A DNA stretch of 30,620 nucleotides from a virus (Duplodnaviria; Caudoviricetes): positions 1-30,620 of the IMG/VR virus record IMGVR_UViG_3300033153_010544; one strand, written 5' to 3'. A program made the translations under genes and the position numbers. Below the pieces are notes generated by a model. That model made no database searches and was not told where the DNA came from. It worked only from the letters and a program-made list of their open reading frames with translations. Shown here in pieces: positions 2,335 through 27,654 of the stretch; the stretch's first letter is position 1; each line of letters opens with the position of its first letter.

Positions 2335-5300
2335 AACGGAAATGATGAAGAAGGCGCGTGATGACAGTCACGCAAACACACTGGCTATTACCAAAGCTAC
2401 GCTGGTTGAAGATTTGATGATTGAAGACTATGCTATGCACGCAGCCTACCATAATACCGGCGAGGCGGGTGTGGTAGCAGCCATCCAGGATGTTGTTGAT
2501 AATCTTATTGCAGGCTACGAACTCGACCGTCAGAGCGCTGAGGGCAAGGATCGTCAGGACGGGCAGGATTCTATTGATTATCTAAGGGCTATCCGTCCCG
2601 ATTCTATCAGTCAGCTGACAATGAAGCGGCCAAAAACCAAGGCGGTTTATAAAGTTACCCTACATAAGGGTAAGGATCCCAGCGAATATGATTGGTTGGA
2701 TTGGGACAAAGCTTTGTCGAAAGAGATCTTGGGAAAAATTATAAATCAATCTGAAAAAAAGGATATAGCTCAATATAGAATGAAAACATTTGGTAGATTA
2801 AAACATTGGTTCGATAAAGATTTAGATAGTTATGATTATACAAACCTTGGAGTTGGGCAAAATGCTTATGAAGAAATATCTACTGCTTTGGGTGGAGACA
2901 AAGAAGCTTCCCTGTTCCTTTTAAGAGCAGGTATAGATGGTATCAAATTTCCGTCCGGCACTCTATCCGGTATTAAAGATTCGCCGCATTTTAACTATAC
3001 GGTCTTTGACGAAAGTGCTGTTGATATCGAGGCTGTTGAACAGTATACCACAGCCACTCCCCAGGACGAAGAATTTATGCGAGAGCATGGCAACAGCGCA
3101 GCTGCTGAAAATGTGAGTAGATCCCTGCGTGATTATGCCATGACGAGTTGGGGCAAGATCGGTCGGTGGATGCTTAAAAAGAGAGAGATAGGAATTGGCG
3201 AACTTGAAGATACTACCGCATGGGAACGCCTGTTGTTTACGCCTATTCATTATTTCGGTAAGGTGCCAGCTGCCGGAGCCATGGTTGAGGACGGAACTAA
3301 TCGTTCAGACAATTATTTCAAAGGGCTGAACTTTATAGAAAAAGATTCTAACAAAAAATCCAGGCTACAAATCGGGAAAAAGCTGAAAAAAACAAACAAA
3401 AAAGAATATCGAGCCATCAATAAGTACCTGGACGACAACGATATGAATAAATATGGCTATACGGTAAAGATGAAAGAGGGCATCGAGGAATCAGTGGGCA
3501 AGACCTTCGAGATAAAAGATCCGGACGGAAAGGTTGTTGGTACTGCCAATAGTTATGATGATGGTTGGGCTGAAGCGACACGGCTGGAAGTAGCCAAATT
3601 GGCCGAGCTGGGATACTCTGAATTGGCTCAGGATTGGGTCCAGGGCACCAGAGAAATGTCTCATAATGTTTTTAACATTTTGCGTGGAGCGATCAACGAT
3701 CTAACTAAACGATACGCTGCTAAGGGAATGAGTCTTCCCAGTGTTGCCACCTGGGTAGATGGCGCACGGGTGGAAGTAGACCTGAAGGTAGCACTGGCTA
3801 AAATGGGTAATATGCGTGGATACTTTATGCCACGAATCCGCAAGCCCGGACGTTTCAGCATGTATGCAAAACCCAAGAAGGGTTATGAGAACAAACTCCA
3901 TCCAATCCTTAAGCATTTTGAGTCAGAGCTTTTCGCTGCTGAAGAAGCCAGCAGGAAAAAGTATGATAATTATATTGTTGATATTGAGAAGATTAATAAG
4001 ATGCCGGAAGATATTTTTAAAATAGCCGGACAGGTCGTGGCGTTTCAGGAGATAATGAACAAGGCGCTGGAGCAGGTCTCTGGTGAGATGAAGAAGGGCG
4101 TAGCCGCCGACGTTATGGCAGAGCTGGAAAAGGCACAGTTGGAGATGGGTAAGCAGCTGGCTGAAGGTGTGGCTAATCTCTTTAAGGGTCGTGGTGTTAG
4201 AACGCATATGATTATGCGAAATGATGCTGTCGGTGTTGGGGTGTGGAAGGGTTATGAAGAAGATTCAGTACAACGCATGGCTAAATATGTGAGGGGCGTA
4301 GCTGCCGGTGAAGCTAAAAAGAAAATGATGCTGGACATGCTGCGACACATGACCGGTACCGATATTTCATGGCAGGAATATCAAGCCGAACATACCAAGG
4401 CGGGTCTGGATACCACCTATAAGGATTATCTGGAATTTGTTAAAAATCGGCGTATTGATCCTGTTAAACAGCGAAACATTTTTCACGATGCTTTAACCTA
4501 TATGGAAGATATGGGTCGAAACGACGAAGCTGTGGACAGAATAATTGGTACGGTCAAGGGCCTGGCTGTGTTGAAATTTCTGGCCGGTCGGCCAGCAGCT
4601 GTAGCGGTCAACCTTACCAACCTTGGTATGGCTGTACCAGCAACAATGCGAGCTTTTGCCAACATCCCTATGCGAAAGACCCCTGGATTTTTAGTTGATG
4701 CCATGAAGGGATACCTGGAATACTATCGTGCAGGAAGATCTGATAGAGATCCAAACATCCCAGGATGGATGAATGATCTGTTTGAAGAAATCGAGGATAG
4801 CGGGTGGCATGCTGCCCAGTACAACAAAGAAGCCTTATCGTTACTTAAATCTAAGGTCGGCAATGGTTATGATACCATGCTTGAGGTTTTAATGATGGGT
4901 TTTGGTGTTTCTGAGCAGATAAATCGTATGGCTACTATAGCAGGGTCTTATATCGGACAACGTAAAATAAACCAAAAAAAATGGGATAGCGCCGGTGCCG
5001 AACAAAAGAAAGTGTTGCACAAAGAATGGATGGCAAATTCCAAAAAGGCTTCTGATATGGCTCATGGGGTTTATTCTAAGGCAAACCGACCACATTATGC
5101 CAGGGGTGCCAATCCGTTGGCACGGACGGCGCAAATGTTTTATGTATTTAAAACATTCAGCCATAACTATTTGCAGACGATGTATGATTTAGGTTTTAAA
5201 ACAAAAGATAGGACTGCTTTACTCTATATGGCATTAGCCCCAGCTGTTATTGGTGGGGCAACATCATCTTTATTAATCAAGGCTGTGATCGAAGCCTTTG

Positions 5301-7192: not shown

Positions 7193-7384
7193 TTATACCA
7201 TGTCTCGCAAACTGGTAATCGATACGATACAACATTCGCTATACTCTTTTTCATCTCCCTTATAATATGTTTGCCACCATGCACACTGGTCTTCACAACA
7301 CGGATAAGGACCCTCTGGGTTTGGTAATGTCATTGGGCAAATCTTTTCAACCGGTTCGTTGTCAGGTGAGTCTTTAATGCTCAT
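7193..7384 (-). CDS. Small Cys-rich protein, paralog of 16773-16973
   Basis: CPMTLPNP..CCEDQCAWW motif; AAGGA RBS. Confidence 0.8.
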   Translation of the reverse strand: MSIKDSPDNEPVEKICPMTLPNPEGPYPCCEDQCAWWQTYYKGDEKEYSECCIVSITSLRDMV

Positions 7385-7649: not shown

Positions 7650-7988
7650 TTATTCTTTTTTTATTTCCTCGTTTTTGTCCTTTGTTTCGGCCTGTACTGA
7701 TTCCGGAGCTGGCTTTGGAGCTGGAACTGAAGCTGGAGCTGGCTTTGGAGCTGGAACTGAAGCTGGAGCTGGCCCTGGTACTGGTACTGCTTGGCCTTGC
7801 TCACTACCCGGTTGTGGCTGATTCATTTGAATATCCACCTGTACCAACATGAGTGGAGCCGGGAGTACTGCGTTTTGTTCCTTGGCTACAAACAACCGGT
7901 CGGTCAGTCGCATAATGACAAGGTACGATTTTCCGTTTTGTTGAACCACGGATCCAAAGGACAGTGTGTTAAGTAGATTGTTCAACAT
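7650..7988 (-). CDS. Hypothetical protein with Pro/Ala-rich tail
   Basis: AAGGAG RBS before MLNNLL; PAPASVPAPK repeats. Confidence 0.75.
   Translation of the reverse strand: MLNNLLNTLSFGSVVQQNGKSYLVIMRLTDRLFVAKEQNAVLPAPLMLVQVDIQMNQPQPGSEQGQAVPVPGPAPASVPAPKPAPASVPAPKPAPESVQAETKDKNEEIKKE
7705..7773. repeat. 30-bp tandem repeat, about 2.3 copies, in frame
   Basis: ggctttggagctggaactgaagctggagct repeated exactly. Confidence 0.95.
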
Positions 7989-9416: not shown

Positions 9417-9478
9417 AAGGTGCCTTCATCCTGTTAATCTATCCGGGATTATTCTTTGATGCGGGTCAAAGACCAGGA
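9417..9478. repeat. 62-bp exact direct repeat, copy 1 (copy 2 at 14953-15014)
   Basis: aaggtgccttcatcctgttaatctatccgggattattctttgatgcgggtcaaagaccagga. Confidence 0.97.
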
Positions 9479-9601
9479 GGTTTTGCTTGCCCGATCACCT
9501 TTAATTTCATCGTATTTATTGTTGATTTCTCCCCACAGGAAAAGAACAATAAGGGTTGCCATGCTGCCAATTAATATCCCAAGCAATAAAACTGGTATCA
9601 T
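9449..9601 (-). CDS. 50-aa single-pass membrane protein, paralog A (not in ORF track)
   Basis: MIPVLLLGILIGSMATLIVLFLWGEINNKYDEIKGDRASKTSWSLTRIKE; differences from paralog B are largely synonymous or conservative. Confidence 0.8.
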   Translation of the reverse strand: MIPVLLLGILIGSMATLIVLFLWGEINNKYDEIKGDRASKTSWSLTRIKE

Positions 9602-9716
9602 TATGTGCCGTCCTTTTTGTGTTGCCGCGCCGAACCCTCTTACCTGGTGGCTATGATGGTGCGACCATCAAATGGGTGTCGAACCCAAGACGCGGCAGTT
9701 ATGTGCCGTCCTTTTT
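9601..9716. repeat. 18-bp direct repeats (9601-9618, 9699-9716) flanking an 80-nt structured segment
   Basis: ttatgtgccgtccttttt occurs at both positions. Confidence 0.95.
9619..9698 (-). ncRNA. Putative multi-stem (tRNA-like) structured RNA
   Basis: Closing stem TGCCGCGTC/GGCGCGGCA; hairpin TGGG-TTCGACA-CCCA (T-loop-like); hairpin TGATGGT-CGC-ACCATCA. Confidence 0.5.
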
Positions 9717-10046
9717 CGGGGGTATAATCCCCGGCCTATCCAACAGGTCCCTTGCGACCTGATCGTCGTCAGATTTCGCTCTGAGAGAGTCTAACGAGGT
9801 AAATATGTCCTGTTTGAGGCTGGCAATTTGGTCTACCATAAGCTCAAGGGTTCTTGCCGAATTAATCTCCATGTCAATTAATCGACTATACACCTGTTGT
9901 AAATTATTAAAATGGCCTCTGGCATAAAAACCCAGTTTGCCCTTTTTGTTAACCTTCTTTTCAAACAGGGTGATTGCCAGCTGGTCTCCCTGGAAAGCCC
10001 AGTTGTCATTAATATGAATAAACTTTTCGTCTTCGTTTTGTTTCAT
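9699..10046 (-). CDS. Hypothetical protein
   Basis: ATGA-coupled ORF in the operon. Confidence 0.75.
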   Translation of the reverse strand: MKQNEDEKFIHINDNWAFQGDQLAITLFEKKVNKKGKLGFYARGHFNNLQQVYSRLIDMEINSARTLELMVDQIASLKQDIFTSLDSLRAKSDDDQVARDLLDRPGIIPPKKDGT

Positions 10047-13886: not shown

Positions 13887-14243
13887 TTATGCCAACATCC
13901 ATTTTGGTGGAAGCTGAACTTCCTGGTCCCATGGTCGCCATAAGTGTAAAACCGTTTTTCCGACATTAATATAATCTTTTTCGGGTGGGTGAAATTGGAT
14001 GGCCAGCTCGTCACTTTTAAAAAACAGGTTTTTAATAAAACACATTTCTTCCCATTTGGGGCAACGGTGTTTTAATGATACTGAAACGTGATCCCAGCCC
14101 TCACCACAGCCACAAATTACCAATAACTTATGATATCTATACGGTATCCTAAAGCACCCTTCGATATTTCCGGGGATTTGTTTTTCGTAAAAAGGATGAT
14201 CTACTCGTAATTTTTCAAGGTTTGATGGTAATTTGTTTTTCAT
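13887..14243 (-). CDS. Conserved phage hypothetical protein
   Basis: GWDHVSVS..RCPKWEEMCFIKNLFF..QFHPP..YIN..LHLWRP. Confidence 0.85.
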   Translation of the reverse strand: MKNKLPSNLEKLRVDHPFYEKQIPGNIEGCFRIPYRYHKLLVICGCGEGWDHVSVSLKHRCPKWEEMCFIKNLFFKSDELAIQFHPPEKDYINVGKTVLHLWRPWDQEVQLPPKWMLA

Positions 14244-14482
14244 GGTCGTTCACTTTTTTCCATCAGTTCCTTATATTTTGCCAATAATTCGTCCCATGTG
14301 TCAAGATAGCCGGAAAAGACGTACTTAACGTTAAGCCAGAACTTGGCTATCCTTCTGTCAGGAAAAAATTTAAACGAAATGGCCTGGATAGAAACATCCA
14401 TTTTAAACTTTTCGCATAAGTTGTCTTCCATATATTCTATCTGTGTATAGCTTGGTTTTTCTGTTTTAGTTATCCGGTGCAT
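14240..14482 (-). CDS. Hypothetical protein
   Basis: AAGGA RBS; ATGA coupling. Confidence 0.7.
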   Translation of the reverse strand: MHRITKTEKPSYTQIEYMEDNLCEKFKMDVSIQAISFKFFPDRRIAKFWLNVKYVFSGYLDTWDELLAKYKELMEKSERP

Positions 14483-14952: not shown

Positions 14953-15014
14953 AAGGTGCCTTCATCCTGTTAATCTATCCGGGATTATTCTTTGATGCGG
15001 GTCAAAGACCAGGA
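14953..15014. repeat. 62-bp exact direct repeat, copy 2
   Basis: Identical to 9417-9478. Confidence 0.97.
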
Positions 15015-15140
15015 ATTTTTTGCTTGCCCGTTCACCTCTGATATTTCATCAATCTTATTATTAATTTCTCCCCACAAGAAAAGAGATATAGCAGTTAGCA
15101 TGCTGCCGATTAAAATTCCTAAAAGTAAAATTGGTATCAT
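14985..15140 (-). CDS. 51-aa single-pass membrane protein, paralog B (not in ORF track)
   Basis: MIPILLLGILIGSMLTAISLFLWGEINNKIDEISEVNGQAKNSWSLTRIKE. Confidence 0.8.
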   Translation of the reverse strand: MIPILLLGILIGSMLTAISLFLWGEINNKIDEISEVNGQAKNSWSLTRIKE

Positions 15141-15156: not shown

Positions 15157-15279
15157 TTTGGCTACGGAAACTAAATTTACAGCTTCTTGTCAGGTTTAAG
15201 ATTAACACTGTTCATACCCACGCCCTGTAGTGGCTTAATTCCCGCAGCCAAACGGTAGCCTCCCGTTTACTTTACAAGG
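15157..15279 (-). promoter_or_regulatory. Putative structured 5' leader RNA
   Basis: 18-bp helix 15235-15252/15157-15174 with three G-U pairs on the minus strand; alternative three-way junction. Confidence 0.5.
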
Positions 15280-15298
15280 TTTGGTGGTAATTTATTTT

Positions 15299-15526
15299 TT
15301 ATGTCAAATGCTTTATCAATACATCCATAAAAGAGTCCACAAACCAGTTGGATGTTGGATCCTGTTTTTTAACATCCAAAGGTTTTTGTTTTTGTGGAAA
15401 CGAAATATTAGAAGCCGACCAGTCCACATGGTTGTTGGACAAAATCAGGTCCTTGGCTGTTTTGCTTAAATTAAATAGTGGTTGCCTGGTTTCCATGGTT
15501 TCTCCCGTTGTAATATTTTCACTCAT
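15299..15526 (-). CDS. Hypothetical protein
   Basis: ORF in the operon; start may be the second Met. Confidence 0.6.
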   Translation of the reverse strand: MSENITTGETMETRQPLFNLSKTAKDLILSNNHVDWSASNISFPQKQKPLDVKKQDPTSNWFVDSFMDVLIKHLT

Positions 15527-16773: not shown

Positions 16774-16973
16774 TGGATATTAAAAATTTACCATGTGATA
16801 AACAAATAAAAACAATCTGTCCCCTTACGCTCCCAAATCCTAACGGCCCATATGCTTGCTGTGAAAAACAGTGTGTATGGTGGCAAACATATTATGAGGG
16901 AACTGAAAAAGAATGTGGTCGGTGTGTGATTGCATCAATCGTTCCGCTTAGAAGGCTTAGGGTGGAAAGTTGA
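16773..16973 (+). CDS. Small Cys-rich protein, paralog of 7193-7384
   Basis: GGAGG RBS, TGATG coupling; CPLTLPNP..CCEKQCVWW. Confidence 0.8.
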   Translation: MDIKNLPCDKQIKTICPLTLPNPNGPYACCEKQCVWWQTYYEGTEKECGRCVIASIVPLRRLRVES

Positions 16974-17964: not shown

Positions 17965-18759
17965 ATGTCAAAAGAAGGTGGATATATATTATTGGCCAGA
18001 GCTTTGGATAATTCTGACATTATGAATAAACCACCACATTTTCGTGAAATTTGGTTGTGGTTTCTTCGTAATGCTGTATGGAAAGATTGTGTCCGAAAGG
18101 GTCTTAAGTTGAAACGTGGGGAGCTGCTGACCAGTTACAATGAAATCTTGGACGATTTAGCCTGGGATGTAGGAAATAGATCAGAAAGGTATAAAAAACA
18201 CCACGTTGACCGTGCTTTTAGGTTTTTTAAAGAAGCCGACATGGTGACGACAGCGAAGACGACAAGGGGGTTGAAGGTAACCATCTTAAAATATAATGAA
18301 TACCAGAGGTCAGAAAGTTATGAAGCCGACAGCGAAGACGACTATGAAGCCGACACGGTGGGTGTTGTACCATTTATAAGAAACATAAAGAAGAAGTACT
18401 TGGAAATCAAACTTCCTAAAAATTTTCCATTAAACCAATTTATCGAATACGAAATCGCAAGAATGAACGGTAAAAAAGATGGTCGTAAAAAATGGAATGA
18501 TAAAAATAGGCAGAGCGCAATTAAAACTTTTTTAAGTCTGGCGGAATTTATTGATGAAATAAAAGTGGATGGATATACCGGGCTAACTCATATTTTAGAA
18601 ATGGCCACCGAAAACAAGTGGCGCGGTTTCGAATATTTTAAAAAATCTATGAGAGGAATCCGCGAGAAACGAAAACAGGCCAGCATCCAATATAAAAAAG
18701 ATAAAGATAGTATGGCACGCCCACAACCACCAGCCTTTAATCCTAAAATGTTGGAGTAA
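17965..18759 (+). CDS. Phage replication initiator/replisome organizer
   Basis: GYILLAR..IWLWFL..A..LKRGELLTS N-terminal domain; internal repeats; upstream of the helicase. Confidence 0.8.
   Translation: MSKEGGYILLARALDNSDIMNKPPHFREIWLWFLRNAVWKDCVRKGLKLKRGELLTSYNEILDDLAWDVGNRSERYKKHHVDRAFRFFKEADMVTTAKTTRGLKVTILKYNEYQRSESYEADSEDDYEADTVGVVPFIRNIKKKYLEIKLPKNFPLNQFIEYEIARMNGKKDGRKKWNDKNRQSAIKTFLSLAEFIDEIKVDGYTGLTHILEMATENKWRGFEYFKKSMRGIREKRKQASIQYKKDKDSMARPQPPAFNPKMLE
18232..18355 (+). repeat. Iteron-like repeats (probable replication origin)
   Basis: GAAG(C/A)CGAC five times, three of them at a 12-bp period (18322-18354). Confidence 0.7.
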
Positions 18760-23369: not shown

Positions 23370-23543
23370 TTAAAAATCGGATCTGAAAAATTTTTGGAAA
23401 TTTTTAGAAAAATTCTGGTGGGGGTTTTTGCCGGAACCTTTGCCGGGTTGCCTGGCTGAAAAGGGGCTGGATTATCCGGGTGCTTTACCCGGTGTGTTCC
23501 TGGTGCCTATCGGGGGCCATAGTTCAGTTCTGGCCAGGTTTAA

Positions 23544-23589
23544 AACAAAAAAAATGGCCCAGGGTTTGAGCCCTGAGCCGTTTTTTTGT
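23544..23589. terminator. Bidirectional intrinsic terminator
   Basis: A-tract, GGCCCAGGG-tttgag-CCCTGAGCC, T-tract, between convergent operons. Confidence 0.8.
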
Positions 23590-26851: not shown

Positions 26852-27217
26852 TTGCGTGACGCTGGTCTGAACCTCCAGGAAATTGGTGATATGTGCGGTT
26901 GTTCAAAGGCTAATGTTTCCGCCCGGTTAAAGGCTGTTAAGGCTGAATTTAAGGGCCTGGCGGTGTTCAAGGATAAGAGGGCCGATATTCTGGCCTTGAT
27001 GCAGCAGAAGATGCTCTATTCTTTGACGGACAAGGATATAAAACGGATGCCTGGCGGTTCCCGGGTGCTTGCCATGTGTCAACTGTACGATAAGGAACGG
27101 ATCGAACGTGGTCAACCTGGGGTTTACGTCCAATATTCTGACTTCCAGGGTGAACTTGACGACGTTAACAGTGAAATCAAGCAGTTAGAAATGGAACTGG
27201 CCGAGCTGGGAGGGTGA
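26852..27217 (+). CDS. HTH protein, probable terminase small subunit (start uncertain)
   Basis: GLNLQEIGDMCGCSKANVSARL HTH, LYDKERIERGQ, coiled-coil tail; position before the late genes. Confidence 0.6.
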   Translation: MRDAGLNLQEIGDMCGCSKANVSARLKAVKAEFKGLAVFKDKRADILALMQQKMLYSLTDKDIKRMPGGSRVLAMCQLYDKERIERGQPGVYVQYSDFQGELDDVNSEIKQLEMELAELGG

Positions 27218-27346
27218 CGGGTGGCCTGGTCGGATTAGCCTGGCCGTGATCGGCGCCCTGGTCTGGGTTATCAGCTACCTGGTGACCTCTTGTTTGCTCT
27301 GATTTACTGGGAAATATGGAGATATCCCCTTGATAATAATATTGAT

Positions 27347-27374
27347 AGTTAACATAATACATCTTATAAGACGC
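27347..27374 (-). other. dif-like XerC/XerD recombination site
   Basis: GCGTCTTATAA-GATGTA-TTATGTTAACT, 11-6-11 layout. Confidence 0.8.
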
Positions 27375-27654
27375 GCCGCTGCATGGTGTGCCTGCCCTGG
27401 TCGGGCCTGTTCTTTTCGTGGGCCTGGTCTGATCGCGCCCGGTCCCGGCATGGTTTGCCCTGGAACCGGAACCGCCCCAGCCCGCGGCCTGGAAAGGCCG
27501 ACCCCCAAAATACGGTGGAGCGAAGCTATATCTCCTAATCCCATAGATTCCAATAAATATAAAACAACAGGACATAACGTCCTATGGGTTATGTTCAGGT
27601 TGGCTAAAATGATTAACCGGCTGTATTTATTTCAAATTTTAAAAAGGAAATTAA

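Follow-up and report, generated by a model that had tools for sequence, protein, structure and literature searches.

How two genes of a phage came to be separated by 80 nucleotides of strongly structured, tRNA-like sequence lying between exact copies of an 18-bp repeat, and what this sequence could do there, is the question raised by this locus. The window, that is, the whole stretch of DNA that was analyzed (30,620 nucleotides, IMG/VR record IMGVR_UViG_3300033153_010544), is phage DNA, and the virus record is estimated to be 46% complete. The genes of the window include those for a DnaB-like helicase, a RuvC-like resolvase, endonucleases, and tail-related proteins, and the element is located within a series of small genes oriented leftward. 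Each of the two flanking proteins is recorded on 6 contigs, the longest of 66,499 bp, which are possibly copies of one assembly.

A repeat-flanked core at a gene junction

The first-pass annotation had described an 80-nt element between 18-bp direct repeats. Both exact copies of the 18-mer AAAAAGGACGGCACATAA (minus strand) were located, at 9716-9699 and 9618-9601, 98 bp apart, and they enclose a core at 9698-9619. The features of the junction are as follows.

Positions 9699 to 10046, minus strand: gene A, 115 aa; its last five codons and stop codon lie in repeat 1
Positions 9699 to 9716, minus strand: repeat 1, 18 bp; end of gene A, with homologous ends in the related phage contigs L002, L003, and L004
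Positions 9619 to 9698, minus strand: 80-nt core; 60% GC compared with 43% for the window; predicted four-way junction
Positions 9601 to 9618, minus strand: repeat 2, 18 bp; putatively duplicated junction that supplies the ribosome-binding site (RBS) of the peptide gene and the A of its ATG
Positions 9449 to 9601, minus strand: 50-aa peptide gene; hydrophobic N-terminal half, predicted membrane protein

Gene A showed a weak PHROG match (phrog_154, E 1.8e-8) to a family labeled replication initiation protein, and the 50-aa peptide matched no Pfam or PHROG family. It had been claimed that the repeat holds both the upstream stop codon and the downstream RBS, and this was confirmed. Repeat 1 encodes the final residues and the stop of the 115-aa ORF (KKDGT*), and repeat 2 places AGGA 9 nt ahead of the ATG of the 50-aa ORF, the last A of the repeat being the A of this ATG. 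The translational coupling that had been predicted on loss of the element was likewise evident from the sequence, since removal of the core and one repeat leaves a TAATG junction. Outside a proline-rich tandem array at approximately 7690-7800, this is the only exact repeat of at least 18 bp with copies less than 1 kb apart in the window, and no such exact repeat was held by any of 200 block-shuffled windows. The 18-mer was found at only one locus in IMG/VR, in a single copy within unrelated AT-rich sequence.

Because recombination between the repeats would restore the TAATG coupling, an excisable DNA switch that uncouples the peptide had been proposed. However, no recombinase was detected among the 49 proteins scanned, and the peptide gene has its own RBS, which is predicted to be open; this part of the first-pass annotation found no support. 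An assembly artefact is also improbable: nothing else in the window is similar to the core, and the 18-bp repeat is below the usual assembly k-mers, which are longer. An excisable switch or an artefact is the least probable of the explanations considered here.

Predicted fold of the core

The multi-stem element with a 9-bp closing stem and a TTCGACA hairpin that had been noted by eye was reproduced in the predicted fold of the minus strand. The arms are ordered from 5' to 3' as closing strand, T-loop hairpin, two unpaired bases, 7-bp hairpin, UA, D-like hairpin, and closing strand.

Positions 9689 to 9697, minus strand: closing stem, 5' strand; part-complementary to the repeat in 5-nt and 6-nt stretches
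Positions 9673 to 9687, minus strand: T-arm-like hairpin; 4 bp and a 7-nt TTCGACA loop
Positions 9654 to 9670, minus strand: acceptor-stem-like hairpin; 7 Watson-Crick pairs and a 3-nt closing loop
Positions 9634 to 9653, minus strand: UA linker, then D-arm-like hairpin; its loop contains GG and is enlarged, and the mimic is weakest here
Positions 9623 to 9631, minus strand: closing stem, 3' strand, in the predicted fold

The closing stem is predicted to consist of 8 Watson-Crick pairs and 1 G-U pair, and its arms begin 1 and 4 nt inside the core ends. The core alone folded at −33.9 kcal/mol (z −3.7), and none of 1000 shuffles was as stable. The z value was only −1.8 (12 of 200 shuffles) for the whole 116 nt including the repeats, and the opposite strand of the core folded more weakly (z −2.5).

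Four other identities were rejected. The core is not a diverged duplicate of the gene A end, as 1420 of 2000 shuffles aligned equally well. A coding role was dismissed because the minus strand has no ATG-started frame of useful length, and an integron attC site because no GTT-type right end was seen in a by-eye comparison with the consensus. A terminator-like hairpin on the plus strand (9692-9709) was discarded as a signal, since 11 such hairpins were found against 8.0 expected.

The partial complementarity between the closing stem and the repeat suggests an alternative in which the core is a translation-sensing RNA switch. In the absence of gene A translation, the 5' strand of the closing stem would pair with repeat 1, and on translation it would pair with the 3' strand, thereby setting access to the peptide start. 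Consistent with this idea, a fold forced to pair with repeat 1 was predicted at −48.1 kcal/mol compared with −49.8 kcal/mol for the cloverleaf (1.7 kcal/mol apart); the 5' strand matches the repeat in the two stretches listed above, and the 3' strand resembles the repeat. However, predicted access to the RBS varied erratically with the ribosome footprint assumed (a footprint of 0 nt left it open, one of 6 nt closed it, and one of 12 nt left it mostly open), pairing with repeat 2 would be unfavorable by 7 kcal/mol, and the T loop would be left unexplained. A switch of this type appears unlikely.

Resemblance to tRNA and permuted tRNA

The predicted layout of the core corresponds to a tRNA that has been opened at its anticodon arm and whose acceptor is capped by a loop. 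Tests of this resemblance gave a mixed picture. tRNA genes accounted for 53 of the 87 IMG/VR matches of a pattern from the 5' part of the core, which indicates that this part has tRNA spacing, as in canonical tRNAs and their 3' fragments, and the CACATAA of repeat 1 sits at the position of the anticodon loop. On the other hand, the core has no upstream 5' half, no CCA at the right distance, and A instead of U at position 33. ARAGORN, a check proposed in the first-pass annotation, found no tRNA gene on the linear sequence, and the core matched no Rfam family. A canonical tRNA was rejected on these negative results and on the lack of a linear acceptor-D-anticodon-T cloverleaf.

A covariance model (R1) was built from 20 T-acceptor-D modules of other genomes; 21 had been extracted, one of which was left out as a probable tandem tRNA pair, and two of the 20 came from a locus found through its likeness to the core. 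R1 placed the core first in the window with 15.7 bits (rough E 0.006), the runner-up having 7.0 bits, and the best score across 78 kb of relatives was 9.5 bits. The same model gave 54-64 bits for four held-out YrlA-like modules, compared with the 15.7 of the core, and 16 bits for ordinary tRNA 3' halves, the same as for the core. When 100 of 120 genomic loci with an identical T arm were scored, 15.7 bits was reached by two, both true tRNA genes; the best non-tRNA locus had 13.2 bits, and the T arm alone contributed 6-8 bits. Shuffles that kept the T arm in place produced an acceptor-like hairpin and then TRG in 32 of 20,000 cases, by a descriptor composed after the element had been seen.

The core was also scored after circularization. 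ARAGORN then gave 90.1, a value reached by 3 of 2000 shuffles, and 20 of the 21 extracted modules gave 82-103 when treated in the same way; the fit of the core uses a different acceptor register. Among 15,270 circularized 80-mers of the window, seven reached 90, two of which overlap the core. Sequence-only profiles from 140 tRNAs gave no significant match (E 0.55 for the 3' half, whereas the 5' half missed the core). A fair reading of these model-based comparisons is that the core would be a permuted tRNA mimic, real but loose. The term "tRNA-like" used earlier was borne out in this sense and can be sharpened, in that the arm order is a circular permutation, as in the Y RNA YrlA.

Comparison with YrlA

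The YrlA report (PMC4201824) gives the arm order of YrlA as T arm, acceptor-like hairpin, and D arm, and states that YrlA RNAs are found in phages too and that the sole YrlA cleaved by RNase P was the one whose acceptor stem has 7 bp. Compared with YrlA (RF02553) as described in that report, the core has the closing stem, T arm, loop-closed acceptor hairpin, UAG, and D arm. The T-acceptor-D order inside a terminal stem is present, with the D arm fitting loosely, and the 7-bp acceptor is that of the YrlA reported there to be cut by RNase P. In contrast, the near-invariant T and D stem-loop sequences of YrlA are missing, the D arm is weak and enlarged, a 2-nt gap separates the T arm from the acceptor, and the core is placed in a coupled-gene junction between direct repeats.

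The RF02553 model did not match the core, and the Ro60-binding motif GNCGAAN0-1G had no match in 9560-9800 on the minus strand. A YrlA is expected to have a Ro60 gene no more than 4 kb away, on its own strand. No Ro60 (TROVE, PF05731) gene was found in either of two records, G000 (46% complete) and G001 (92% complete), in a search in which 2 of 14 controls were positive. YrlA identity was rejected on these three grounds. Our verdict is that the core has a YrlA-type topology without the Ro60 module, inside a coupled-gene junction. In the literature searched, which covered few subscription papers, no phage was reported to carry a permuted tRNA-like insert flanked by direct repeats.

Separately, two clean permuted T-acceptor-D modules were observed in a phage tRNA array of record G067 (L148, 375-447 and 500-570). 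The YrlA model, which has a cut-off of 69, gave them 22.5 and 28.6 bits, and no TROVE gene was found in this record, which is 17% complete. These modules are likely to be divergent phage Y RNAs.

Comparison with C4 and CI RNAs

The first-pass annotation had also called the element reminiscent of the P1 C4 and P4 CI RNAs. PMC5320573 describes C4 as an RNA of approximately 77 nt that is an RNase P substrate and has GGW at its processed 5' end. In PMC5320573 and PMC4825925, C4 and CI are said to act by pairing of their loops with flanking targets, and two like sequences, seqA and seqC, are placed upstream and downstream (PMC4825925). A C4-/CI-type antisense RNA, cut out of the message and acting on both flanking repeats to repress the peptide gene, was therefore considered.

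The likeness to P1/P7 C4 (RF01695) and P4 CI is one of arrangement. These RNAs and the core are multi-stem elements of approximately 80 nt (80 for the core and about 77 for C4) that lie ahead of a small gene and between two like sequences, as with seqA and seqC, and the second like sequence overlies the RBS. However, complementary matches of at least 5 nt between the core and the repeat were found only in the 5' strand of the closing stem and in no loop, and cofolding of the folded core with the repeat in trans gave no energy gain. Furthermore, the stem of the core starts with UGC rather than GGW, no RF01695 match was obtained, and repeat 1 is the conserved coding end of the upstream gene. Membership of the C4/CI class was rejected for the lack of loop complementarity, predicted trans binding, and an RF01695 match. 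The reminiscence stood for size and flanking repeats only, the defining loop-to-target complementarity being absent, and repression by a C4-/CI-type RNA is highly improbable.

The junction in related phages

Three related phage contigs carrying gene A (L002, L003, and L004) were found in alignment scans that took in 28 of 64 metagenome parts and 37 of 64 viral parts. The core, and the peptide at the gene A junction, were absent in all three. The end of gene A reads GTGATG in both L003 and L004, and the ORF coupled directly to it there is small and hydrophobic but is not the peptide gene. The L002 contig has an unknown 77-aa ORF after gene A; exact 28-bp repeats at 4340-4367 and 4536-4563 flank this ORF, another copy of the stop/start motif lies behind it, and the insert is unstructured (z +0.5). 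Thus, gene A is directly coupled without an insert in two of the three relatives, each time to a gene other than this peptide. A strict empty site, in which gene A is coupled to this same peptide, was not present in the three relatives, whose downstream genes differ.

Since the relatives have no core, two being directly coupled and one having a different insert, the core is likely to be a recent gain at a variable junction. The direct coupling would be ancestral, and the junction appears to have taken up new DNA repeatedly. Because all five homologs retain KDG at the gene A end, repeat 1 is probably the original copy and repeat 2 the duplicate. The unrelated L002 insert has its own repeat at the same junction, which argues that the repeat reflects the site and not the element. 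An insert presumably survives here only when the stop/RBS overlap is duplicated, and this would explain the content of the repeat without a transposase. Therefore, repeats around inserts at a coupled stop/RBS junction, which carry a copy of the overlap, need not mean transposition.

Searches for a second copy of the core, which were exact-pattern or partial, found none in the window, a 61-kb relative, the phage and plasmid collections, or the IMG/VR pattern matches. The BLAST of the 80-mer suggested by the first-pass annotation, made against phages and plasmids, yielded short chance matches only. Patterns from the core matched 3 and 87 loci in viruses and, in 1/64 of the collection, 120 loci in genomes. 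A descriptor scan of all collected loci gave one other match, L213, which is weakly tRNA-Sec-like and is not listed by a one-sequence model (R2). R2 had no match in 150 genomes of a phylum guessed to contain the host, and the count for gene A was 0 of 401. The 20-mer of the peptide tail had no match in IMG/VR, and peptide queries led to no confirmed case among 38 viral and 172 metagenome candidates. No homolog of the core was found in these searches, and hence there was no covariation and no sign of selection.

These results bear on the proposal of an insertion with a target-site duplication, similar to a SINE or MITE. MITEs and tRNA-derived SINEs are short, non-coding elements with an exact flanking duplication; they occur in several copies and have terminal inverted repeats or a mobilizing partner enzyme. 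The core is likewise short and non-coding, with an exact 18-bp duplication, the first copy of which belongs to the conserved sequence of gene A. A small non-autonomous mobile element would also account for repeats that start in an A run, a GC content unlike that of the window, tRNA-like content, and absence from the three relatives. In contrast, the core is single-copy in the searches made and shows no clear terminal inverted repeats, with the stem arms inset from its ends as noted above. No transposase or reverse transcriptase was seen among the 49 proteins scanned of a record that is 46% complete, and the unrelated insert at the same junction is flanked by repeats too. Insertion with duplication of the junction was supported by the relatives. 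Mobility of the SINE/MITE kind was not, given the lack of a second copy in these searches and the unrelated insert at the same junction. We regard a mobile element as quite unlikely.

A more serious alternative is that the core is a functionless passenger, that is, the decayed remains of a tRNA or Y RNA, or hairpins arising by chance, captured by recombination at this variable junction and tolerated since the duplicated overlap keeps both genes working. The core is a single instance with no homolog found, its R1 score is weak and equal to that of tRNA 3' halves, the L002 insert at the same junction is unstructured, and the peptide RBS is predicted to be open, all of which are compatible with a passenger. 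On the other hand, no stem is disrupted, none of 1000 shuffles folds as stably, a permuted order seldom arises by chance, and the paralog of the peptide gene also has a structured leader (see below). In addition, the identical repeats make the gain look recent, yet the core is far from any tRNA or YrlA seen and its pairing is kept. A passenger is somewhat doubtful on this evidence, although it is the strongest of the competing explanations.

A possible role as mRNA punctuation

The explanation that we tentatively prefer is that the core is a permuted tRNA mimic embedded in mRNA and cut by host RNase P, which would give the peptide gene its own stabilized leader. As for its origin, the stop of gene A and the RBS of the next gene overlap, so an insert would leave both working only if this overlap were duplicated. 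The 18-bp repeat would then be a by-product of recombination or repair, for example, of unequal crossover at the AAAAAGG run, rather than the mark of a dedicated transposase. The module would be cotranscribed with the leftward early genes inside a phage early mRNA, where the T arm and the 7-bp hairpin could present a tRNA-like surface to RNase P.

Cleavage would occur in the hairpin loop, 5' of the second strand, between 9661 and 9660, a site placed by analogy with YrlA as described in PMC4201824. PMC11143913 reports that RNase P cuts C4, intergenic RNAs, and mRNAs. The analogy is supported because the YrlA with a 7-bp acceptor is cut and because RNase P cuts C4 and mRNAs. After cleavage, the pieces would be kept together by the closing stem, which would also protect the peptide message, and the RBS would stay open, so that the peptide could be translated independently of gene A. 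In the predicted fold with the closing stem formed and gene A blocked to its stop, the peptide RBS was open, with an unpaired probability of 0.89-0.99.

A bolder variant is a bacterial counterpart of SINEs, in which a permuted tRNA-derived 80-nt RNA moves itself, being copied from RNA and pasted at A-rich stop/RBS junctions. Pasting would produce the 18-bp duplication, RNase P would cut the host message, and both neighboring genes would remain intact. We consider this variant very unlikely.

If punctuation by an RNase P-cut mimic is correct, the phage would uncouple and stabilize one cistron through a host tRNA enzyme. Bacterial permuted tRNA mimics are known from Y RNAs encoded beside Ro60, and if the module works in mRNA without a Ro60 site or gene, the fold would have been borrowed as punctuation. 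The weight of this suggestion is limited by the single example, for which the searches found no homolog.

The peptide paralog and other repeats in the window

A paralog of the 50-aa peptide is encoded at 14985-15140. Directly upstream of its gene, a structured element was found at 15157-15252 (minus strand), the sequence of which is unrelated to the core and matches no Rfam family. It is predicted to have a closing stem of approximately 19 bp with 4 G-U pairs, and its fold is specific to the sense strand (z −3.6, compared with −0.3 for the other strand). This element could be an RNase III-type site. Because the paralog gene also follows a sense-strand-specific, stem-closed structure, the comparison suggests that the message of the peptide benefits from a structured leader.

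The last 62 bp common to both peptide copies (9417-9478 and 14953-15014) are identical, whereas the other 126 aligned columns are 75% identical. These ends show no unusual fold, and they may reflect recent gene conversion or a signal at the DNA level. Protein P0003 is a third homolog of the peptide; its body is nearer the 9601 copy, and its N-terminal extension, KGFEM, resembles the sequence upstream of the 15140 copy.

Further repeats were observed elsewhere in the window. A 33-bp direct repeat (88% identical) is present at 14212-14244, at the start of a 118-aa gene, and at 15271-15303, just upstream of the second structured element; it is possibly an older junction duplication. An 80-bp inverted repeat (81% identical) is located at 7245-7324 and 16833-16912, 9.5 kb apart. 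The DnaD-like gene contains short repeats at 18248 and 18327, and repeats were also seen near the matching place in G001 (L216, 135-244); these repeats may be origin iterons. The most stable predicted folds of the window are included in GC-rich regions at approximately 27200-27510 and 23440-23580.
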